Source: a virus
Length of the DNA: 64,000 bases
Direction: 5' to 3' (one strand)
Virus record (IMG/VR): IMGVR_UViG_3300044675_005482
Coordinates: 49,998-113,997 of that record
Shown: positions 17,893 through 62,160 of the stretch, in pieces
Layout of the letters: every line of letters starts with the position of its first letter
Position numbering within the stretch: the first letter of the stretch is position 1
Translations under genes and position numbers: made by a program
Notes under the pieces: generated by a model
Database searches by the model: none
What the model saw: the letters and a program-made list of their open reading frames with translations, nothing else
Told to the model about the DNA's origin: nothing

Positions 17893-18035
17893 AGTTTTAT
17901 CAAAGCAAAGAATGGCTATATAGAAGGTACGTTGTTCAAAAGAAAACGGTAACAGAGATAGGTAAAGAGTGTGGAGTTTCTGCTATGACTATACAGAGAT
18001 ACTTAGAACAGTTTGGATTGATTAAAAAAAGATGA
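17886..18035 (+). CDS. Small HTH DNA-binding protein (49 aa, not in ORF track)
   Basis: SKEWLYRRYVVQKKTVTEIGKECGVSAMTIQRYLEQFGL. Confidence 0.75.
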   Translation: MVKFYQSKEWLYRRYVVQKKTVTEIGKECGVSAMTIQRYLEQFGLIKKR

Positions 18036-38253: not shown

Positions 38254-38545
38254 ACTTGGTATAGATAGAGACGACTTTCAATGGTTCCATCTTGCGCTAT
38301 GTCGTGGGATGGACACCAATTTGTTCTATGACAAGTACGAAGCAGATGTAAATATAGCAAAAAATATAGACGAGGCCTGTCTTGGGTGCCCCGTTATTAA
38401 AACATGCTACGAGTTTGGTACTGAAAACAACGAGCACGGAATCTGGGGTGGAGTGTACTTAAACTCTGGATCAACAGATAAAGCCAGAAACTCTCATAAA
38501 ACAAAAGAGGTCTGGAAGAGACTAAAGGCAAAGCATGGAAAATAA
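38234..38545 (+). CDS. whiB: WhiB-family Fe-S transcription factor
   Basis: ALCRGMDTNLFY...CLGCPVIKTC...HGIWGG. Confidence 0.92.
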   Translation: MSNILNELGIDRDDFQWFHLALCRGMDTNLFYDKYEADVNIAKNIDEACLGCPVIKTCYEFGTENNEHGIWGGVYLNSGSTDKARNSHKTKEVWKRLKAKHGK

Positions 38546-50939: not shown

Positions 50940-51010
50940 AGTCCGCCTTTCTTGATTAGGATTATAACATAAGGGACTGACATTGTGCCAGTCCCCTAAT
51001 GTATATTAGA

Positions 51011-51160
51011 TTACTTAGCCTTGTTGACTGGAGTCTCTGCGGTAAACTTCATGCCCTTTGATTCCGCCTCCTGGATAGCAACCTTAGCTGCTCCTGAGAA
51101 ACGACCACGAGCTCCGACTGTGATTCCTTGTGACTTTAGATATTCACGCTTTGTTGTCAT
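51011..51160 (-). CDS. Lsr2-like DNA-binding mini-protein (49 aa, not in ORF track)
   Basis: KREYLKSQGITVGARGRFS with RGR hook; GAAAGGGGA RBS. Confidence 0.65.
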   Translation of the reverse strand: MTTKREYLKSQGITVGARGRFSGAAKVAIQEAESKGMKFTAETPVNKAK

Positions 51161-51702
51161 TTGTATCCCCTTTCAAGAGATGTTTTATTTATTATATCAA
51201 CTATTTACGGATTTGTAAATAGCTTTCCGCCTATATTTAATTGTGATCGTAAGAGCCAAATTTGGCCCCTACAAATTTACCTGTTCTACTCGATCTTTAA
51301 TTAATTTACTAATGATGTTGTGGGCCTCGATATTCTCAGTCTCAGATCCACCCCACAAAAGCTGCTGTGCTTTATTTAATTGATCATTGATGTACACATC
51401 ACTCATCTTCATCTTCGTCCTCCTCCTCTTCAAACATCAAGTCTGTCATGATGTCGTTGTTTAACAGCCAGTCACGTATATCTTCGTAGTGTTGCTCTGC
51501 CCCGTACTCCAGAGAGAACCCGTAGCCGTTCTGTACAGCCTCTCCGAGTTTGTCCCACACCTCTTGCTCTGATACCTCAAAGCGAAACTCCTTGTCGTCC
51601 ATTAGGTTTTTAATTGTGGACCATGTCCACAGCCATACCATGGAAAGACCAAGGTCGGTGGTGTCAAGAATCTTTAAACATTCATTTAGTTTATCTTTGT
51701 CA

Positions 51703-51975
51703 TCAGGCTTCATCTCGTTCTCCAATCGCAAATGCCAACTGATATGTAAGTTGATATAGTTCTACTAATGTATCAAGGGCACCCTCACATCTTGTGCGCT
51801 CCATTGAGTCCATTGCTTCTTCTGATTCATCCTCCTGCTCCTGTGCACGGGCTAGGTCCCGTTCAGCAATGAGCATTAGATTCTTTAGTTCTCCATGGAT
51901 GATGTCAAGGCCTGACACTCCAGCATTAACCATGCGTTGCATGTGGGGCGGGAGCCCAATATCTTCTGAGTTCAT
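51703..51975 (-). CDS. Hypothetical early protein
   Basis: ORF with AACGAAAGG RBS. Confidence 0.7.
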   Translation of the reverse strand: MNSEDIGLPPHMQRMVNAGVSGLDIIHGELKNLMLIAERDLARAQEQEDESEEAMDSMERTRCEGALDTLVELYQLTYQLAFAIGERDEA

Positions 51976-52574
51976 TATTCATACCTTTCGTTAGAAGAGT
52001 TCATTATATCAGTAGCCACTGACAATAAATGCCTGGTTGTCTCAATCTCTGCTTGTTTAACTTTATAGAAATGATGACCATTTACATAGTCAATCTTTTC
52101 TAGGTCTTGTTCAAGACTAATTAAATGAAGTTTCATATATTCCATAAACTTAGAAGACTTAGACATCTACTACCTCATATCTCTGAGTCAATCTGTCGAA
52201 ATACCTGGCAGCTTGGCAGGTACAACTGCATACACCAGGTATGTCTGTCGCTTGCCAGTAATGTTTATGCATGATCGAAATACCCCTCTGCCCACAGCCC
52301 TTGAAGGAAATCGTGGGCGGATACAAGATAGTTATGAATAGCAGGATTCTCATCAGCATCTATTAACAAGTCTGCTTGATAAACCCCATATGTCATATCT
52401 GCTAAATCTCTCTGTGTATAACCTAACATTATGCAACCTCGTATTCATGTAAGTAGTTTAATACATTGTGAATTATGCAATCACAATCTCCGCCCATATT
52501 ATCCATAAAATCTAAGTGGGAATAATTATCCTCATAGATAGTATTGATTACTTTATCAAACATTTCTATTGTTG

Positions 52575-53348
52575 TCATACATCCGCCTTTTCTCTAGATT
52601 CCAATAATACCATGTGGGTCTGACATTTTGCCATAGCCTCTTCATCTTGCCAAGAGCCTTGGTTACATTCTGAGCAGAATTCACCACAGTCATCTTCACA
52701 GTAATCTAATGTATCAAAAGATTGGCAAGCATAACAGCGATTCTCATATGAAAGAATTTCCTTTACCTCACCACGGACAATCTCATACTCTCCGCCCCAG
52801 CCTGTTTCTTCCTCATACTCTAATGTAAGCAGGCAGTTCGGAACAAGATTACTTAGTTTAGTTAAGATAGTTACAGCAGGTGACCATGCAGTCTCATAAC
52901 GATAGATAACCCAGTTGTCATCACCTTCTGATTTATATTCAACTAATTCTGTATTTGAATACTCCTCATCATCACGAACGGCTACATCCCACTTAGTTCC
53001 CCAGTTGGTGTTATTCCAAGAATACCAATCCTTTTGAGTCTTAGCATGTTCAATAGATTTAGCAAACCAATTAGGGTCGTCCATTGAATAATCACCACGA
53101 GAAGGCTGGCATGCATATTCCTCATCAGTAATGCCGTCATCCTTATATGAATGAATGTTGTGAAAAGCGAATACAGGATTATTATATTCAACTAATTTAA
53201 TTTTGGTGGGGAATCCAGAAGAACTAATATCACCCATACCATAAGTCTCTTGTGCTAATGTAAATGGCTTATTCAATCTATCTTTAATCATATCTACCTC
53301 AGACTTAGGTCCTTGGATAGTTAATGTGTTATAACACCAATTTGGCAT
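52575..53348 (-). CDS. YubB/DUF1281 ferredoxin-like domain protein
   Basis: MPNWCYN, WYSWNNTNWGTKWD, ETAWSP. Confidence 0.8.
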   Translation of the reverse strand: MPNWCYNTLTIQGPKSEVDMIKDRLNKPFTLAQETYGMGDISSSGFPTKIKLVEYNNPVFAFHNIHSYKDDGITDEEYACQPSRGDYSMDDPNWFAKSIEHAKTQKDWYSWNNTNWGTKWDVAVRDDEEYSNTELVEYKSEGDDNWVIYRYETAWSPAVTILTKLSNLVPNCLLTLEYEEETGWGGEYEIVRGEVKEILSYENRCYACQSFDTLDYCEDDCGEFCSECNQGSWQDEEAMAKCQTHMVLLESREKADV

Positions 53349-53526
53349 TTTATATCCTTTCGTTGATATGGCTTAATTATACAATGGACCACTGACAATT
53401 GGAATACTTTATAAGTGTGTTTCACACCACATTTTTCAAGCTATGTGGTCAAGATCACCAAATTTCCAGGAAATATATATTGACTTCGTAAACAAACTAT
53501 TATACCCTCAGCTTTTGGGGGCCAAA

Positions 53527-53670
53527 CAAAAATCCCCGCTTGCACGGGGATTAATGAAATGTACGGCTGCTAGGATCTACCAACGAAAGTAAAAAGTCCT
53601 GCTTTACTTAGCGACTTGACGAATGCCTTATCTAGCCGCACCGAACATGTATAAGAAGGCACCAGGCCTA
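53527..53670 (-). ncRNA. Candidate structured small RNA with its own promoter and terminator
   Basis: TGGTATAAT ending at 53676; stems GTGCCTT/AAGGCAT and GTGCGGCT/AGCCGTAC; terminator AATCCCCG..CGGGGATTTTT. Confidence 0.45.
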
Positions 53671-53676
53671 CTTAAA

Positions 53677-54042
53677 TTATACCATAACTAGTCGACTGTA
53701 TTTATTTACAAATTCATCGATAGTTAAACTGAAGACAACTGTCTCAAGGTCCTCTTCCATCAATGTAAATGTTTTGGCAGCCCAGTCAATTACTGGTACC
53801 TTGTGCTCATTGTCCGCCAATTGATTTACGCTAATGCCCCAGCCTGTTTCTGATTCCCATTCTTCGCCAACCATGCGACTAATAGCAATACGTGTAGCAT
53901 ATGACTCATCATTCCAACGAGGACGTGCTGCCTCTACAGCATTGGCCAAGTTCTCTAACATGTTATAGCCTGCCCAGTGCCCGTACAGGAATACTGTATC
54001 TCCCTTACGGTCCTTAAATCCAAAGTTTGCTCTGTCTCCCAT
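53677..54042 (-). CDS. Conserved phage hypothetical protein
   Basis: MGDRA...LYGHWAG. Confidence 0.75.
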   Translation of the reverse strand: MGDRANFGFKDRKGDTVFLYGHWAGYNMLENLANAVEAARPRWNDESYATRIAISRMVGEEWESETGWGISVNQLADNEHKVPVIDWAAKTFTLMEEDLETVVFSLTIDEFVNKYSRLVMV

Positions 54043-54399
54043 TTTATTCCGCCGTTTCTAATGTAGGTACTTCTTCTTCGATTTTGTCTAATTCTATCAT
54101 CTCGTATGAGACCTTGGCAAGTCCATCCTCGAACTTGTTTTTGTGGTGACCGCAGAAGAACAGCTCGCCTTCTACTAGCTTAATTAACCATTTAGCTTGA
54201 GCTGTACTACATGCATCACATGCAATCCATCTAGTTAGATCTTCAGAGGTCATAGTCAACGGTTCCAAATTCTATGGTGTCAGCAATGTCATCATAAACC
54301 TGTCCGTCATCAGATGACTCCGCCCATAGTCTAATGTTGGCAATGATAACTTCACGGGCAAATTTTACCCCGTCTTCAAAACCGTCTTGGTAATCCATT

Positions 54400-54618
54400 T
54401 TATCTCCCTGTATATCCTGTTGGCTCGTAGTCTGATGTATAACTCTCTACTAGGTTATACTTATCACGAATGCGTGATACTTTCTCAATGCTACCAGTTC
54501 CCACATTGAATGTCAATGGTCCAATCGCTTGTGGGTCCAGGCCAATCATCTCCGCATCCCAGGTAGCCCTCGCAAAGGCTACCTGGTTTGGAGCGGTTAA
54601 TTCAAAATACATTAGCAC
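54400..54618 (-). CDS. Hypothetical early protein
   Basis: Coupled ORF. Confidence 0.6.
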   Translation of the reverse strand: MLMYFELTAPNQVAFARATWDAEMIGLDPQAIGPLTFNVGTGSIEKVSRIRDKYNLVESYTSDYEPTGYTGR

Positions 54619-55262
54619 TCCCTAACGTGACATACTTCTTGTTCTGTCACTTCGATATTGCCATTGTGTGAATCGGCATAGATAGCATCTGCAATCTCAT
54701 CTTCGATGTCATAGTCCTCAAGCAAATCAAGTTCCATGGTTCCGCTAACCTCGATAGTTGCAGTCCATTCAACGCTACGTGTTAGAGAGATATCTAAAGC
54801 CTCAGCAATTGCACGTAATGTGTCTTGGTCTTGTGAATCAGCATATGCCTCAGCAATAATATCTTTAACTGTTTTAACTTTGTCTTCAAAGATGCCAACA
54901 CGCTTTTGTGCTTGACGTGCATTGTGTAGGTCCCACTCAATTGATGTGACCTTGTCAGTTGCATACTCTGCATCTGAGTATCCACGAATAACTTTATAGG
55001 TTACTAATAGATTTGGGTTATATGTATCAGGAACAGTTACTGCAGTTGTTGTTTCTTCCATGGTTTCCTCTTTCGTTTGTGTAGGTTGTATTGTAGCATG
55101 CTCCACTGACACCAATGTAGTATCTCGACCACACGGGCATGTGAGCTTAGTCACACCAGATGGGAATCCAAATCCATCCGATGATGTTAGTTCAATTAGA
55201 GAATCACATTCATCTGGGTCACATACAAATGTGTACTTACTTGATATGAGTTCGTTGGTCAT
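54612..55262 (-). CDS. Early protein, likely two in-frame isoforms (starts 55262 and 55061)
   Basis: Near-leaderless start after promoter 55270; internal promoter 55090 plus RBS. Confidence 0.65.
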   Translation of the reverse strand: MTNELISSKYTFVCDPDECDSLIELTSSDGFGFPSGVTKLTCPCGRDTTLVSVEHATIQPTQTKEETMEETTTAVTVPDTYNPNLLVTYKVIRGYSDAEYATDKVTSIEWDLHNARQAQKRVGIFEDKVKTVKDIIAEAYADSQDQDTLRAIAEALDISLTRSVEWTATIEVSGTMELDLLEDYDIEDEIADAIYADSHNGNIEVTEQEVCHVREC

Positions 55263-55364
55263 GACGAGAATTATACACCTGGCCACTGACATTTACAAGC
55301 TTTTTCAGGGATTTTATTTGTGATTCGTAACACACAAAATGTGCCTTCACATCTGGGGGCTTTG

Positions 55365-55438
55365 CGATCCATAACGGACTTGAACCGTCGACCTCTACCG
55401 TGACAGGGTAGCGCTCTAACCAACTGAGCTAATGGACC
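55365..55438 (-). tRNA. tRNA-Asp(GTC)
   Basis: GGTCCAT/ATGGATC acceptor, CTACC-CTGTCAC-GGTAG, TTCAAGT T-loop. Confidence 0.93.
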
Positions 55439-55445
55439 TAATGGT

Positions 55446-55473
55446 GAGCAGTTTTAAATCTTGCTCAGGATTT
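55446..55473 (-). ncRNA. Small pseudoknot motif, copy 2
   Basis: AAATC-CTGAGCAA-GATTT-AAAACTGCTC. Confidence 0.6.
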
Positions 55474-55480
55474 TTTTTAT

Positions 55481-56485
55481 TTAGAAATTCATAACCAATT
55501 TCTTGATTTTGTTTTTCTCAGCAGTTAGAACGGGGTCAAATCCAGATGCACCCGCCATAAGAGTTTCACCATTGCCACGACCAGAACGATAGTAATCAAG
55601 GCGCTCAGTAAGTGCATTAAACGCACCCCATTTTGTTCCCTTGATATTAGCGTTAGTTGGTGAGTTATGATACAAATCATCAAGCAGGACAACTTTGTTT
55701 TCCCACTTCTTCAATGCACCCTTAGTGTCTTTATCAGGCTTTGGATAAATTGTCTGAATCAACTTTGAGAATTCAGCATCGGTGATTGCTTGAGTGTAAA
55801 GCGCCTTTGCTTCAACTTCAAACTCATCAAAATAACCAAGAGCAAGACCAAGAGTCTCACGAGCAACTTGAATGCGACCTTCAACAGATTGCGTGTGGCG
55901 AATCTTGAAAGATTGCTTTGCATTACGCATTGCAAGATTCAAAGTATTTTGGCAAACAACACGAACAGGAGTAACCGCTGCTTGAACAGCAACAGAACCA
56001 TCGTGTGATGTCCATACGATTAGATATAACTTTGTCTCATCATTGGCGCCTTGTGGGTCAAGAACCATTGTGCGAGGAATATCTACAGTGCCGAATACAA
56101 CTTTGCCCTTCTTAAGAGAACCAGCAGATTCCCAACGGCAATCAGCATTCGCATCGTGAATTGCATCTGCAAACTGAAATAATTCTTCATTCTGCACAGG
56201 CTTGTAACGCTTTCCAACAGTTGCAAGAACATCAGTTCCGCCATTGAATGGATTTGTGCGAACAACTAGAGATGAATCTGAAACATCATTCCAAGATTCG
56301 TCAATGTGATTTGTGATAGGTGATAAGCGAACATTCCAATTTGCTAACTTTGCTTCTTCAAGCATTGTTGCAGTTGTAACTTCCTCATCTTTTGTGAAGA
56401 TGCGATTTGCTAGATTATGCCAAGCAGGAGCACCACGGAGAGCGAAAGCAACTTCGCCATTTTCGACTTCGAGATTGTGAGCCAT
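55481..56485 (-). CDS. DUF932 family (phage/plasmid-like) protein
   Basis: MAHNLE, PAWHNL, YKPVQN, ESAGSL, SHDGS, TPVRVVCQNTL, WGAFNALTE. Confidence 0.88.
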   Translation of the reverse strand: MAHNLEVENGEVAFALRGAPAWHNLANRIFTKDEEVTTATMLEEAKLANWNVRLSPITNHIDESWNDVSDSSLVVRTNPFNGGTDVLATVGKRYKPVQNEELFQFADAIHDANADCRWESAGSLKKGKVVFGTVDIPRTMVLDPQGANDETKLYLIVWTSHDGSVAVQAAVTPVRVVCQNTLNLAMRNAKQSFKIRHTQSVEGRIQVARETLGLALGYFDEFEVEAKALYTQAITDAEFSKLIQTIYPKPDKDTKGALKKWENKVVLLDDLYHNSPTNANIKGTKWGAFNALTERLDYYRSGRGNGETLMAGASGFDPVLTAEKNKIKKLVMNF

Positions 56486-56574
56486 TTTTTACCTTTCGTT
56501 TAGTTGATTTGGCAATTATAACAGGTGGCACTGACATTGTCTAGATTAGTTAGTCATTTGTCCGAATTGATCCG

Positions 56575-56590
56575 TGTGAGTAATCTCACA
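56575..56590. promoter_or_regulatory. CRP/GlxR-type palindrome (one of a family)
   Basis: TGTGA-GTAATC-TCACA; further perfect copies at 58047, 58640, 60050, 61099. Confidence 0.7.
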
Positions 56591-56603
56591 AATTTTCAGG
56601 GGC

Positions 56604-56633
56604 TGTGGATAACCGTCTTAAACCTGTGGATAA
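56604..56633. promoter_or_regulatory. DnaA-box cluster 2
   Basis: TGTGGATAA at 56604 and 56625. Confidence 0.65.
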
Positions 56634-56701
56634 GTCCGCACATATGCGGGCGTCTCAGATAGTGGGAAGATGAGGCGGGATTTTAGATCCCGCCCCAAGC
56701 T

Positions 56702-56962
56702 TTAAAGTATTCCGATTTCCTGAGCAGTTAGTGGCTTATGTGTGTTCATTTTATTTACAATACTTTCATCAAGAAACATTGCAGTTGTTTTCTTTTTCTT
56801 TACGCTATCAAACACATAAGCATTTACTCTGCCGCTAAACTTACGCAGGTTGCTAAATACTAATTCCGTTAGGTATTCTTTATCTACACCTTGCTCAGAA
56901 TAAATTGTTACATCGTTCATCTTGTTTGCGTCATAGATTTCAATTCTAAAACGATTTTTCAT
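56702..56962 (-). CDS. Hypothetical early protein
   Basis: ORF with RBS and upstream TATAAT. Confidence 0.7.
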   Translation of the reverse strand: MKNRFRIEIYDANKMNDVTIYSEQGVDKEYLTELVFSNLRKFSGRVNAYVFDSVKKKKTTAMFLDESIVNKMNTHKPLTAQEIGIL

Positions 56963-57031
56963 TTTGTTCCTTTGTTAGTAGGGATAAGAATTATAACATT
57001 GGGGGCTAGAGTTTGTCTAGCCCCCTAAAAG

Positions 57032-57214
57032 TTATGCGCCGATTTTTACCATAGCCCAGCGCAGACCATTTTCTGTATTCAATCCTAGTTTAGTTAGATT
57101 AGGACGGATAGAAACGATTTCTGCGATAGTGCCAGTAATTCCTGATTTACCAGTTGTAAAGACATCGCCCTTACGATAGAAGCGACCCTTAGTAGTATCT
57201 AGAATTGGTGACAT
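57032..57214 (-). CDS. Small beta-barrel-like protein, paralog of 57807-57980
   Basis: YRKGDVFTTGKSGITGTIAEI...TENGLRW. Confidence 0.7.
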   Translation of the reverse strand: MSPILDTTKGRFYRKGDVFTTGKSGITGTIAEIVSIRPNLTKLGLNTENGLRWAMVKIGA

Positions 57215-57241
57215 TGTATTACCTTTCGTTAGTGGGTTGGT

Positions 57242-57269
57242 GAGCAGTTTTACAACTTGCTCAGGTTGT
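57242..57269 (-). ncRNA. Small pseudoknot motif, copy 3
   Basis: ACAAC-CTGAGCAA-GTTGT-AAAACTGCTC. Confidence 0.6.
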
Positions 57270-57318
57270 CCCACTCTATTTATTTAGACACGCATTTCTG
57301 TGGGGCGTGTTGTATTAG

Positions 57319-57735
57319 TTAGAGATACTTAGCAATCTGCTTCATTGTAGAAGCATTTACTGTTTCCTCATCTGTCATCTTTAGAATTGTGAGAGCATTT
57401 GTGATGTCCTCTTTCATTTCCTTATAGGTATGAGTGTGAATAACCTCAAAATCCTTTTCAGGTTCAGCAGGGAACTCTGAGCCATTTACTGTGATGTCAA
57501 AATCAACATTAAGTGTCTTGTTCCAAGAACGATAGTTTGTGCGAAGGTTCTCAGCCTTTGAGAAATTGTCAATAGCCCACTTGCCAATTTCCTTGCGCCA
57601 CTTTTCTTGCGCCTTCTGATACTTTGCTTCGTTAGCACCTTGTGTAGCATAGTCTTTTTCCAACTGTGCTAGACGACCTTCTAGTGCCTTGATTACCTTT
57701 GGTGTTGCCACCTTTACTGTTATTGCTCTACTCAT
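57319..57735 (-). CDS. Hypothetical early protein
   Basis: ORF with promoter and AACGAAAGG RBS. Confidence 0.75.
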   Translation of the reverse strand: MSRAITVKVATPKVIKALEGRLAQLEKDYATQGANEAKYQKAQEKWRKEIGKWAIDNFSKAENLRTNYRSWNKTLNVDFDITVNGSEFPAEPEKDFEVIHTHTYKEMKEDITNALTILKMTDEETVNASTMKQIAKYL

Positions 57736-57806
57736 TGTGTTTCCTTTCGTTGGTTGGTTGTTTGAGTATTATAGCAGGGGGGTCTGACAACCCCCCTGCC
57801 ATTTCA

Positions 57807-57980
57807 TTACGCTAGGCTATCGGCAAGAACTGTTGTCCAGCGTTCGCCATTTTGTGTTTCTAAGCGAACACGCACCGAGCCAGATGCGTTAGGAATAATC
57901 TCTTTAATTACTCCAGTTTCTTTTGACTTCAGAGTGGTGAATAAATCTCCAACCTGATAGACTTTGTTATCTAGTGTCAT
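57807..57980 (-). CDS. Small beta-barrel-like protein (57 aa, not in ORF track)
   Basis: YQVGDLFTTLKSKETGVIKEI...TQNGERW. Confidence 0.7.
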   Translation of the reverse strand: MTLDNKVYQVGDLFTTLKSKETGVIKEIIPNASGSVRVRLETQNGERWTTVLADSLA

Positions 57981-58057
57981 TTTGCTTCCTTTCTGTTTAG
58001 GGTCTGATTATAGCAGAGGCTACCGACATTTAGTAGCCCCTGCCTGTGTGAGTTATC

Positions 58058-58324
58058 TCACAATTCTTCAGGTAGCCAAGCACCCAAGTGGTGTTGTTCG
58101 ATGATAGCCCAAGCGGGTGCGTGAGTCTGACCCTTATACGATACGCCTTCAGGCATTTCGATAGCACGATCAAAATCTTCTTCGTAGTATGCGTCAATTG
58201 CTTCGATGCAAGGTTCGACCATAGAAAGTGGAACGGGTGGGTAATGATTACCCTGCAAGTGATAGCCAATAGCAACTTCTAAATCTAATTCTTGCGATAG
58301 GTCTAGTGCTGTGTTGTATCCCAT
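58058..58324 (-). CDS. Conserved phage hypothetical protein
   Basis: HLQGNHYPPVP...IIEQHHL. Confidence 0.7.
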   Translation of the reverse strand: MGYNTALDLSQELDLEVAIGYHLQGNHYPPVPLSMVEPCIEAIDAYYEEDFDRAIEMPEGVSYKGQTHAPAWAIIEQHHLGAWLPEEL

Positions 58325-58326
58325 TA

Positions 58327-58551
58327 TTAGTTACCTTCCTTAATTGTTAATTCTGCCCAAGAGTTACCTTCATTTGCAACTGTAAGAGTGTTAGACATAG
58401 CAAGAGCGTGAATTGTTGCACCCTTACACATCTTTTCAATTTCAGATTGTGGTAGGTTGATTAGCGCAGGCAATAACTTTGCGTCAATTTTATCCAAGTC
58501 AATAATTGCCTCGAATACAACTGTGTGTGGAACTTTCATTAGATTAGACAT
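58327..58551 (-). CDS. Hypothetical early protein
   Basis: ORF with promoter and RBS. Confidence 0.65.
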   Translation of the reverse strand: MSNLMKVPHTVVFEAIIDLDKIDAKLLPALINLPQSEIEKMCKGATIHALAMSNTLTVANEGNSWAELTIKEGN

Positions 58552-58972
58552 TTGTTACCTTTCGTTGTTGGAATAAGAGTATTTTAGCATAGGCCACTGA
58601 CATTTAATAATCGAGCTTCGGCGTGTTTCTAATTTATTTTGTGATAAACCTCACAATTTTCAGGGTGTGTCGTAACTTGACGTAAACGGCTTTTTGCCCC
58701 CACACCTTTGCGGGCTTCTTTCAGTTTGTCAAGTTAATTTTGCCAAATGTCGGGATCAACATCCTGCAAATATTCTTTTGCAAGCTTTTGTTGTTCGTCT
58801 GATCCAGTTACAGTGGCCATTAATGCATTTAAATAGCCAAGGTCCATTTTATAAAAAGGATTTTCGTTACTCATCATGTTGCCCCTTATGTTTAATTTTA
58901 CGTGTGTACTTTTTTTTATTGCGAACAGGTTGCGCCGCATTGCTACGGCGCAATTCCTGAATGCGTTTTACT

Positions 58973-59164
58973 TTATTTTGAACTGAAGTTAGGAACATTG
59001 TAATTACTCGCTTCGTGAAATCTTTTTACATCAAATCGCTCATTGTCTTTCGCAAACATTTCTGCGAAGTCGTGAACAGTTTTAGAAAAAACAGCGGGGT
59101 GAACTTTATTGCTGAGATACTTTAGAATTTCAGCGGTTGCGATGTAATCTTTTCGTGTCATCAT
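58973..59164 (-). CDS. Hypothetical early protein
   Basis: MTRKDY...DNERFD..RF. Confidence 0.7.
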   Translation of the reverse strand: MMTRKDYIATAEILKYLSNKVHPAVFSKTVHDFAEMFAKDNERFDVKRFHEASNYNVPNFSSK

Positions 59165-59740
59165 TTTTGTGTAACCTTTCCATTTCGGTAGAAGTTCTTA
59201 GTGTGCATTTTACCAGAAGGCTCTGACAAATTATAGGTTGCGTATTCTTTAGCATCGCCAAAGTCTGAGCATTTATCGAATTCGTGAACGGCGGTTAGAG
59301 CATCTGAAAAATCCCACGATGCAACTCTTTCACCATCATAAGCAATAGTTAGTTTATACATTAAATGTTCCAATCTTCTAGGGCGCATTCACACGCTTCT
59401 ACATCATAATTATTTTCATCGCCCCAGAATAAAAATCCAGCGCCACCGCATTCATCACAACTCGCTGCGATAATTTCTAAGTATTGTTTTACTTTAGCCA
59501 TTCAGGTTTTCCCTTTCGTTTGTTTTGGTAATTGTAGCAGATAGGACTGACAAGGCTTCCGCCTTGCTTGCTTCACGTTGTTCGATAACGTGCTTCTTGA
59601 ATTCTTCTAAGTTCATTCGAACGCCCCCTCTTCTAGTAATCCTAATTCAATGTTAAACAATTCATCGGGAGTGGCTTCGGATAAATCTACCCAGCCAGCA
59701 CCCTCGTCATCCATTCTAAAAATTTCAATGTATCCCATTA

Positions 59741-59947
59741 TTATTCACCAACCTTTACTGCGATTGTTGCGAATTTATTTCGCAGACCGCCTGTGCGAAT
59801 TTCGATTAAATAGGCTTCAGCGTTGTCGCCATAATAAATTTCAGGGCGAGGTTCTGCTGAAACAATTTCGCCTGAAAAGTGGCGAGAGTTTGAGCGATAG
59901 TTTTTCCCTACAAGTAGGCTTTCGATTGTGTATAGTTTGGTAGCCAT
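59741..59947 (-). CDS. Hypothetical early protein
   Basis: ORF with promoter and RBS. Confidence 0.65.
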   Translation of the reverse strand: MATKLYTIESLLVGKNYRSNSRHFSGEIVSAEPRPEIYYGDNAEAYLIEIRTGGLRNKFATIAVKVGE

Positions 59948-60206
59948 TGGCAGACCTTCTTTCGTTTTGTTAATAATGGTATTTTACCAGAACGGACTGA
60001 CATTTTCCAATTCTGCAAGGGTTTGTCTCATTATTTGGAGCGTGGGCAATGTGATAAGCATCACACGTAAATGTCCGATTTGTCTGTCAAATCGACACGC
60101 CGCAAATTTTCAGGGAATTTATAACTCTTTCATAACGACACGCCCGACGCCGCACCACTGTGGGCGGGCCAGCTTGATTTTGTCAAGCCGACACGCCGTT
60201 ATTTAT

Positions 60207-60404
60207 TTATTCATTTTCTAATTCTGCTAAATAATCTTCGTGCTCTACTAATCCAATCGCAAACGCTACAGGATCGCAACACTCTAAAATTTCGGCAGGT
60301 GTGAAAGTAGAGTAACCGATTTTTACAGTAGGGTAAATATCGTTTAGCAAATCTATAAAGCTTTCTTTTATTTCTAAATCTTTTTCAAATTGTGTTTTTT
60401 CCAT
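60207..60404 (-). CDS. Hypothetical early protein
   Basis: ORF. Confidence 0.65.
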   Translation of the reverse strand: MEKTQFEKDLEIKESFIDLLNDIYPTVKIGYSTFTPAEILECCDPVAFAIGLVEHEDYLAELENE

Positions 60405-60655
60405 TTTAGTTTAATCCGTTTTCTCTTAGGTCTTTTATTACTAGGCGCAACATTAGCAGGGCGGGAATACCGATACCTAATTGCACAAGGGTGGTTAGTA
60501 TGCGTGTAGTAGTCATTACTTATTCTTCTTTCTCTTGATTACTTTATAAAGTGTAACACCTACCACCGACAAGATAATAAACGCCCACGATTGGGAGATA
60601 TATAGAAAGTCCCCTAGGTCAATCATTAAGCCATATTCATTTAGTTCTATAGTCA

Positions 60656-60844
60656 TTACTTATCTCCAAACATATTAAAGACCTCATCTAATTGGTCATC
60701 GGTTAGGTGGTCAATTTCAATAGCCTTAGCAAATCCGAAAATATCTTCTTCTTCTGCCATTAGTTTTTCATACATTTCTTCTTCTGCTAGGTGTGCGTAT
60801 TGGTCTTGCACATCTGCTTGAATTGTATCCCATTTGCTCATCAT
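60656..60844 (-). CDS. Hypothetical acidic early protein
   Basis: ORF. Confidence 0.6.
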   Translation of the reverse strand: MMSKWDTIQADVQDQYAHLAEEEMYEKLMAEEEDIFGFAKAIEIDHLTDDQLDEVFNMFGDK

Positions 60845-62085
60845 ATTACTTACCTACCTTTATCTCTTGAACATTAGCGGAAAACTTTTGTGATTTAGCG
60901 AGGTCGCTAGTATTTAATTCTTTAATTAGGTTATCTATCTCCTTAGTGTTAGTAGCAACATTACCAATAGATAGTAGGCGAGAGCCTTGCCATAGTGAGT
61001 ATGTGATAGTCATTTACTGTTCTTCTTTCGTTAGTAGTTATAGTAGGAATTGTAGCGTATAGCGGGGACAAATAGGGGGATATAGCGGGGGTGTGTCGTG
61101 TGAGTTACCTCACATTGACTAGGGCGTGTGTAGCGTAGTTACCGCCACACATTACGCATAGAGTCCAAGCGGTTACTCTACCGCAACCGCTAGAGCAAGC
61201 CACATAGTGGGCGGGTGTGTGGTAGTCGTTACGACTTTCCCATATTCTATTAGTCATTAGTTAGACTCCTTATCTAAACAGTTGATACATTGGCAACCCT
61301 TAGAGGATAGCAAGGCTTTTAGTATCGCCTTTCGTGTATAGGTATCTAGTCCATATGAGGACTTGACTCCACCATTGTGAAAGTCGTGCACGATTGTGCT
61401 ATATAGTGTTTCTGTAAGTTGAGTCATTATCTGACTCCTTTCTTTTAGTTAGTATCTCTAACTCCTTATACATATAACTATACAGGTGGGGTCTGACAAA
61501 TTGCAACCCCAAAAAGGAATAAATCGGACATTTTAAAAAATAACTATGTGTTTTACATCACATTTAGGGGTCTTATGGGCGCACTATCGGACAAAACGGA
61601 CATTTTTTATAGTGTGTATCATACAAATTAAAAATATATTAACATTTTAGAAAATATGAAAAAAGTATTGACTTACGAAAATTTCAAATGTTATACTTAG
61701 AAAGGTTTCGGGGGGTTACACTAAGGAACTCAATACACCAAGTAGCTCTTGGGATTTTGATCCAGACTCTCCTCTATCTTTCCAAAAAGATTTTTTAAAT
61801 TTGGGGGGTAGGGGGGGTTTGCTAAAAAATCTAATTCCCAAGTAATCAATATACTAAATATAGAATATATTATATATATAAGCAATAGATATCTAAAAAA
61901 AATATTTTATTAACATTTAGATATATCTAATATTGCAGTTGACTAGAATATATAGTACAATAAGATTATGAAATGCAGTTTCTGTGAAAATGAGAAGTAC
62001 GTCCAACGATTAAATTCGAGGGGGATACTAGAAAATTTTTGCATTGACTGCATTTCTAATATAAACCGAATACGCTAATCCTTAA

Positions 62086-62160
62086 GGGGATATAGCTTAA
62101 TCTGGTTAAAGCATTTGTCTTATATACAAACGAGTTTGGGTTCAAATCCCAATATCCCTA
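62086..62160 (+). tRNA. tRNA-Ile(TAT)
   Basis: GGGGATA/TATCCCT acceptor, TTTGT-CTTATAT-ACAAA, TTGGG-TTCAAAT-CCCAA. Confidence 0.85.

Follow-up and report, generated by a model that had tools for sequence, protein, structure and literature searches.

The stretch of DNA analysed here, called the window, is the last 64 kb of the IMG/VR virus record IMGVR_UViG_3300044675_005482 (113,997 bp in total); it has ~37% G+C and comes from an uncultured lake-water phage. Between ~50.1 and 61.5 kb it carries a block of genes that all lie on the minus strand, and many of the promoters in this block are preceded by palindromes of the form TGTGA-N6-TCACA, the distances between palindrome and promoter forming a ladder with steps of ~10 bp. 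This ladder is real. The palindromes themselves are well supported as predicted sites of a symmetric dimer with CRP-like specificity that would act from one helical face, while the promoters that they precede are predicted to be of the PafBC type. It is hypothesized that the palindromes are bound by a CRP-type dimer, most likely the Crp/GlxR orthologue of the host actinobacterium, in a class-I-like co-activation, a proposal whose chances we judge to be about even.

Six exact copies of the palindrome are found in the window, where 0.05 would be expected from shuffled sequences, and three more copies carry one mismatch (starting at 55319, 57435 and 61547). Over the whole 113,997-bp genome, all nine sites with zero or one mismatch fall inside the block (55140-61562) and none in the other 103 kb, an enrichment of the kind that a preliminary description of this DNA had proposed to look for. 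That description listed five perfect sites, each of which was found again by motif search (Table 1), while a sixth exact site, at 55140, had been overlooked. Among its four near-matches, those at 55319 and 61547 stand with a single mismatch each, while those at 53416 and 53444 carry two. Because palindromes with two mismatches are not enriched (6 seen, ~4 expected), 53416 and 53444 find no support within this genome. In relatives, however, most orthologues of the two have a single mismatch and occupy identical phased positions, and we therefore regard the pair as decayed but genuine. The one-mismatch site at 57435 is intragenic, with no promoter downstream, and is probably a chance match that is not part of the system.

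Measured from the centre of the site to the first T of the -10 box, all distances quoted in the preliminary description were reproduced exactly (Table 1), with the -10 boxes on the minus strand. The ~10-bp ladder that it read from them holds beyond this genome, and phasing in related phages, on which it had staked its reading, was looked for and is seen in related loci. The related set comprises 80 loci (DUF932 protein 90-95% identical, 1.34 Mb), which contain 452 exact palindromes and, always on the gene strand, 1,177 promoters of the same PafBC-type class; an exact site lies 20-130 bp upstream of 430 of the 1,177 promoters. When these promoters are grouped by downstream gene, the distance from site to promoter at one orthologous promoter varies among phages, mostly in steps of ~10 bp, with sets of 42.5/62.5, 52.5/62.5, 41.5/51.5/61.5 and 61.5/72.5/94.5 bp within groups. 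At the promoter of the DUF932 gene, the palindrome stands at 61.5-62.5 bp in all 81 members of the group (the 80 related loci and this window). The spacers of different length classes are unrelated sequences, and thus duplication or the insertion of a unit cannot account for the ladder. A Rayleigh test with one observation per independent spacer family gave an optimum at a period of 10-10.25 bp (R = 0.75, p ~6e-10, n = 38 families), with rungs across families at 42.5, 52.5, 62.5, 72.5, 83.5 and 94.5 bp. A more distant relative (67% terminase identity) has kept the promoter class and has sites at 51.5, 72.5, 72.5 and 82.5 bp. An IMG/VR-wide scan for the palindrome, followed by any gap of 18-48 bp and then TGTCAG-N10-TAnnnT, yielded at least 120 loci, with 72 spacer families among the matches listed. 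Gaps of 18, 27-29, 37-41 or 47-48 bp account for 60 of these 72 listed families (~83%, an 18/28/38/48 ladder), gaps of 33-34, half a turn off this ladder, for 11 (~15%) and a gap of 21 for one, with no family at any other length (R = 0.62, p ~1e-12, n = 72 families).

The composition of the palindrome is that of a CRP box. In related loci it is the half-sites that are conserved; the 6 bp between them are free to vary, apart from a symmetric preference for T/G and A/C at positions 6/11. One-mismatch sites were ascertained equally at all ten core positions, and the family-level mismatches, folded by symmetry, number 10 at positions 1/16, 3 at 2/15, 2 at 3/14, 5 at 4/13 and 16 at 5/12. They concentrate at 5/12 and 1/16, with almost none in the GTG/CAC triplets, which include the bases G2 and G4 that residues R180, E181 and R185 of CAP read (PMC10187061). 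The match to the CRP/GlxR consensus claimed in the preliminary description thus extends to agreement at all ten core positions together with a CRP-like tolerance of mismatches. A LacI-type operator (AATTGTGAG...) was also considered and set aside, the half-site spacing here being N4 instead of N2 and a central CG being absent.

The upstream regions on the minus strand read TGTC[A/G]G, 10 nt (mostly N7-TGn), TAnnnT and then a AACGAAAGG ribosome site, and no conserved -35 element was found in the promoters of the block. The motif TGTC[A/G]G-N10-TAnnnT occurs 15-16 times between 50961 and 61498, each time on the minus strand, and is absent from the rest of the genome. For PafBC, the motif in vivo is tGTCgg(N10)tA(N3)T; its "-26 element" spans -23 to -28, and a -35 is lacking (Müller et al. 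2021, PMC8635444). PafBC recognises the motif by wedging itself between sigma region 4 and the DNA, and its activator is single-stranded DNA (PMC8635444). The phage promoters fit the published motif in sequence and in exact spacing, likewise without a -35 element (motif from PMC8635444), and would accordingly be classed, as far as sequence can tell, as PafBC-type promoters with a -26 box TGTCAG and an extended -10 box. The "early promoters" of the preliminary description are thus present, but a plain early sigma-A type was not borne out, the class being instead a PafBC-type hybrid; "early" therefore becomes an assumption, and "class I" only an analogy. Nine promoters have a palindrome and six of the same class lack one, which makes the palindrome an optional add-on. 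Metatranscriptome contigs from three lake or freshwater studies cover the block genes and, to a lesser extent, the intergenic parts, such contigs showing neither starts, strand nor true transcription.

In lying upstream, on one helical face and in ~10-bp steps, the palindromes are arranged as class I CRP sites are, which in Escherichia coli are centred at -61.5, -71.5, -82.5 and -92.5 (PMC4132738). When the first T of the -10 box is set as -12, the phage sites are centred at -54.5, -64.5, -74.5, -84.5, -95.5 and -106.5. Measured instead to the centre of the -26 box, they lie at 29, 39, 49, 59, 70 and 81 bp, and for the E. coli class I sites the distances to the middle of the -35 hexamer are 29, 39, 50 and 60 bp (positions from PMC4132738); the sites and the upstream promoter element are both displaced by the same 7 bp. 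This spacing would fit a class-I-like arrangement around PafBC and sigma region 4. Of the class I activation put forward in the preliminary description, the same-face ladder holds, the absolute positions relative to +1 would deviate by 3 bp if the first T of the -10 box is -12, and given the PafBC-type core the comparison is one of analogy. Every site ends at least 18 bp upstream of the -26 box, so that none overlaps or abuts the core promoter in the manner of a phage repressor operator.

The identity of the binder, the sign of its effect and its contact are what we infer from these observations. The earlier finding of no CRP-family gene extends to the whole phage genome, in which searches for a CRP-type helix-turn-helix, a cNMP-binding domain and sigma region 2 found none; a sigma region-4-like match at 17907-17999 is weak and below the cut-off. 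Pfam searches with 20 early open reading frames (ORFs) detected no DNA-binding domain, and so no candidate phage binder. Because the phage encodes no CRP-family protein, the binder is most likely the host's, and since the first promoter of the block carries sites, an activator would need to exist before phage gene expression. In the proposed mechanism, a host Crp/GlxR dimer would dock on the palindrome, whole helical turns upstream of the PafBC-type promoter, where it would face the RNA polymerase complex from one side of the helix and modulate initiation. The contact would most likely be a class-I-like co-activation via the alpha C-terminal domain, and ~60% of the block promoters would then receive a second host input besides PafBC. 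GlxR activates as well as represses (PMC10187061). Gating of infection on the carbon or energy state of the host, also proposed earlier, is speculative, because DNA binding by actinobacterial Crp is only moderately dependent on cyclic AMP (PMC10187061).

The host is probably an actinobacterium. This is indicated by a WhiB-family gene, an actinophage hallmark (38282-38455, plus strand; Pfam PF02467, 45.5 bits), by a basic 49-aa ORF (pI 10.2; 51011-51160, minus strand) with an ...ARGRFS... motif like the C-terminal DNA-binding domain of Lsr2, by kinship with Streptomyces phages and by the PafBC-type promoters. No close relative emerged among cultured phages in either near or distant DNA searches, and a WhiB-based search of bacterial genomes returned nothing. 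A terminase search of bacterial genome bins gave matches only in Bacteroidia, Cytophagaceae and cyanobacterial metagenome-assembled genomes, and one Bacteroidia bin contains several contigs of close phage relatives. We read these taxonomically inconsistent assignments as composition-driven mis-binning, unfit as host evidence, because the phage has strong Shine-Dalgarno sites, TATAAT boxes and WhiB. Four complete genomes of acI (Nanopelagicaceae; 5.4 Mb), reached via a 16S probe, served as a plausible stand-in host only. Each of the four has one Crp orthologue (E = 2e-76 to Mycobacterium tuberculosis Rv3676), in which the AQLVGASRETVNKALADFA stretch, and with it the recognition helix, is identical to that of Rv3676, and each has an adjacent pair of WYL genes resembling pafBC. 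The phage-style promoter motif occurs at conserved positions in these genomes, including upstream of a gene reading as RecA. A host Crp is thus feasible as the binder, and the phage sites would be the best in such a cell. In two of the acI genomes, a PafBC-type motif TGTC[A/G]GTGATGGCTGGTAGAAT stands 24 nt upstream of a gene reading as CarD and is itself preceded by a long perfect hairpin; one would not expect CarD among the targets of PafBC.

Several points weigh against a host Crp acting in this way. Under the -12 assumption, the sites miss the E. coli class I positions, counted from +1, by ~3 bp, and the consensus extended -10 boxes should need little help. The Streptomyces phage Paradiddles, compared below, has the same promoter layout but no palindrome, though its host has Crp. 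Relatives contain a half-turn class at 57.5-58.5 bp (8-15% of independent spacer families), which is absent from this window and for which the related loci have no counterpart class at 47.5 or 67.5 bp; in a few relatives, moreover, three palindromes abut one another ahead of the first promoter at intervals of 16-17 bp, which resembles an operator array. There are no exact palindromes in the four acI chromosomes, where one-mismatch sites are no commoner than in the control, the identity of the host being only presumed. Real CRP regulons use degenerate sites, and these chromosomes lend a host Crp no support of their own. Finally, ~35 small ORFs in the block have no assigned function. The half-turn class and the abutting tandem sites count in favour of a phage-encoded or virion-delivered dimer of unrecognised fold that switches the block on or off, its likeness to a CRP box being coincidence or mimicry, and chromosomes empty of consensus sites are what a private phage operator would lead one to expect. 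The small block ORFs, ~35 of them without Pfam matches and several Cys-rich with Cys4 zinc-ribbon-like motifs, could supply such a protein, and in P2-type phages a small zinc-finger activator acts at a dyad, TGT-N12-ACA, near -55. We take this explanation seriously but think it doubtful: the ORFs examined include no candidate protein, the fit to the CRP consensus covers all ten core positions and the mismatch tolerance, sites on the first promoter are awkward for an activator that the phage must make, and at 42-95 bp upstream the sites stand clear of the core promoter, unlike typical repressor operators.

The remaining explanations have less in their favour. Another host regulator, such as a further CRP/FNR-family paralogue or some unrelated dimer, would be compatible with the extra weak CRP-type helix-turn-helix matches in two acI genomes, but these fall under the family cut-off and FNR-type paralogues usually read TTGAT-N4-ATCAA, not TGTGA, so that we hold it to be unlikely. 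If the sites bound host Crp mainly as a high-affinity decoy, draining it from host promoters as phage DNA replicates, one would understand why there are 9-10 near-perfect sites per phage genome versus 0 perfect ones in 5.4 Mb of acI DNA, and why they are stronger than natural CRP sites, which deviate from consensus (PMC10187061). A pure decoy, however, requires no helical phasing, which is the strongest signal, and the sites occur only beside the PafBC-type promoter class, making this quite unlikely. That the palindromes are RNA hairpins or relics of a duplicated promoter cassette, and not protein sites, is very improbable. Each could form a 5-6-bp stem, and several are embedded in a larger cassette, itself repeated, that consists of hairpin, TTATCCACA pair and CCCTGAAAATT box; yet the stem sequence is conserved without covariation around a variable loop, and each site precedes the start of the promoter to which it is phased, which argues against a hairpin in RNA. 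Phasing to a downstream -10 box lacks an RNA rationale, and duplication cannot yield a 10-bp ladder from unrelated spacers of different length.

Co-activation by host Crp/GlxR could be one half of a larger design, in which the block carries two-input promoters assembled from host parts, with a PafBC core triggered by single-stranded DNA and Crp boxes at a class-I-equivalent distance from the -26 box; we put this forward tentatively. Here, the incoming phage DNA itself would perhaps trigger the damage alarm of the host through single-stranded DNA, the first phage genes would fire by the alarm state together with the cyclic-nucleotide or energy state of the host, and the perfect sites would out-compete every host Crp site once phage DNA replicates. 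If true, this would be the first Crp co-activation of sigma-adaptation promoters and the first lytic phage to wire a whole gene block to two global regulators of its host. To our knowledge, sigma adaptation has so far been known only from mycobacterial DNA-damage genes, and the literature yielded no account of motifs of the CRP or PafBC type on actinophage promoters. Lakes are rich in these related phages, with >300 related contigs in IMG/VR, and their hosts are probably the dominant freshwater actinobacteria. If host Crp and PafBC drive the block jointly, the outcome of infection would be predictably and testably tied to host physiology, and the block would provide a natural promoter series on which to study cooperation between a classical upstream activator and sigma adaptation. 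Binding and spacing experiments could use the perfect phased sites as they stand, and a phage protein, should that be the ligand, would be a new small regulator whose specificity is CRP-like.

Table 1. Palindromes and predicted promoters of the minus-strand block, in window coordinates; distances run from the site centre to the first T of the -10 box.
Feature	Position	Strand	Remark
Palindrome, 1 mismatch	61547..61562	.	72.5 bp from -10 box of promoter 61477-61498
PafBC-type promoter TGTCAG-N10-TATAGT	61477..61498	-	first promoter of the block in the direction of transcription
Palindrome, exact	61099..61114	.	52.5 bp from -10 box of variant promoter 61049-61070
Variant promoter TGTCCC-N10-TACAAT	61049..61070	-	
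Palindrome, exact	60050..60065	.	71.5 bp from -10 box of promoter 59981-60002
PafBC-type promoter TGTCAG-N7-TGG-TAAAAT	59981..60002	-	
Palindrome, exact	58640..58655	.	61.5 bp from -10 box of promoter 58581-58602; CCCTGAAAAT box adjoining distal side
PafBC-type promoter TGTCAG-N7-TGC-TAAAAT	58581..58602	-	
Palindrome, exact	58047..58062	.	42.5 bp from -10 box of promoter 58007-58028; starts at stop codon of upstream ORF
PafBC-type promoter TGTCGG-N7-TGC-TATAAT	58007..58028	-	
Palindrome, exact	56575..56590	.	62.5 bp from -10 box of DUF932-gene promoter (56515-56536)
PafBC-type promoter TGTCAG-N7-TGT-TATAAT	56515..56536	-	DUF932 gene
Palindrome, 1 mismatch	55319..55334	.	51.5 bp from -10 box of promoter 55270-55291
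PafBC-type promoter	55270..55291	-	ATG 7 nt past -10 box
Palindrome, exact	55140..55155	.	52.5 bp from -10 box of promoter 55090-55111
PafBC-type promoter TGTCAG-N7-TGC-TACAAT	55090..55111	-	
Palindrome, degenerate (2 mismatches)	53444..53459	.	70.5 bp from -10 box of promoter 53376-53397
Palindrome, degenerate (2 mismatches)	53416..53431	.	42.5 bp from -10 box of promoter 53376-53397
PafBC-type promoter TGTCAG-N10-TATAAT	53376..53397	-	
Six promoters of the same class without palindrome	within 50961..59552	-	-26 boxes at 59547, 59223, 57784, 52620, 52019, 50977

Individual promoters and the boxes around them have further features. At the promoter 55270-55291, the ATG follows the -10 box so closely that the transcript may be leaderless. 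The promoter 55090-55111, with its own palindrome, sits inside the reading frame of that ATG and is followed by an in-frame ATG at 55061 with a strong ribosome site, two nested products being possible from this part of the minus strand (55061-55292). On the plus strand, a canonical sigma-A/sigma-70-type promoter (61668-61697, TTGACT-N18-TATACT with TGn), with neither -26 box nor palindrome, is directed away from the minus-strand block and toward a tRNA-Ile at 62086. Two perfect DnaA-box consensus nonamers TTATCCACA lie 21 bp apart on the minus strand (56604-56612 and 56625-56633), and immediately precede the CCCTGAAAATT box and the palindrome at 56575. Relatives have the same pair at several of their promoters, and two of the five genome copies of the nonamer are inside the block. 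The box CCTG[A/G]AAA[A/T]T has four copies, all in the block on the minus strand (53461, 56591, 58655 and 60105), which adjoin the distal side of the palindrome in three cases and stand 40 bp off in one, and a similar CCCTGAATT precedes the PafBC-type motif in two acI genomes. Three of the four genome copies of a GACACGCC box fall in the block (recurring boxes mapped at 60094-60197 and at 56556, 60069, 61525 and 61597), as do four of the five copies of CGGACA[A/T][A/T]T. CGGACA boxes also fill the homologous intergenic regions of Paradiddles. At the DUF932 promoter, conservation is higher in the spacer box TCGGACAAATGAC than in the palindrome.

Among known systems, the mycobacterial PafBC (RecA-NDp) promoters share with the phage promoters the motif, its exact spacing and the lack of a conserved -35 element (PMC8635444), and the motif also precedes recA of acI. 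The phage differs in having ~15 such promoters in 11 kb, mostly with an extended -10 TGn, and in its upstream CRP-type boxes, which have not been described for cellular PafBC promoters and which the few acI examples inspected lacked. The actinobacterial Crp/GlxR proteins (Rv3676 of M. tuberculosis, GlxR of Corynebacterium glutamicum) bind CAP-like palindromes (PMC10187061), and the acI Crp has the recognition helix of the former; their known sites, in contrast, belong to cellular genomes and mostly deviate from a perfect palindrome, and no phased series of them on PafBC-type promoters has been described. With the class I CAP promoters of E. coli (lac type), the phage promoters have in common the 16-bp consensus, a site above the core promoter, several positions one turn apart on one face and the ladder of distances to the upstream promoter element (29, 39, 49-50 and 59-60 bp). 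Unlike them, the phage promoters have a -26 PafBC-type box in place of the -35, a register relative to +1 shifted by 7 bp, or by 3 bp the other way, and perfect consensus sites, which are rare in cellular genomes. They also belong to a phage, occur as several consecutive promoters with a site and include a half-turn class in relatives, activation in the phage being a prediction. The activators P2 Ogr and P4 Delta recognise a dyad, TGT-N12-ACA, near -55 upstream of phage promoters without a good -35. The phage palindrome resembles it in its TGT...ACA dyad centred near -55 upstream of promoters poor in -35, but has N10 spacing and several helical positions, belongs to another lineage and host, and is accompanied by no identified Ogr-like gene. 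The cultured phage Paradiddles has a homologous DUF932 gene in its terminal repeat with the same block layout, an analogous promoter TGTCC[CT]-N10-TAGACT and an annotated Lsr2-like gene in the homologous block. As this layout occurs there without the palindrome, the promoter class would be old in the lineage, and the palindrome an addition made within the lake group.

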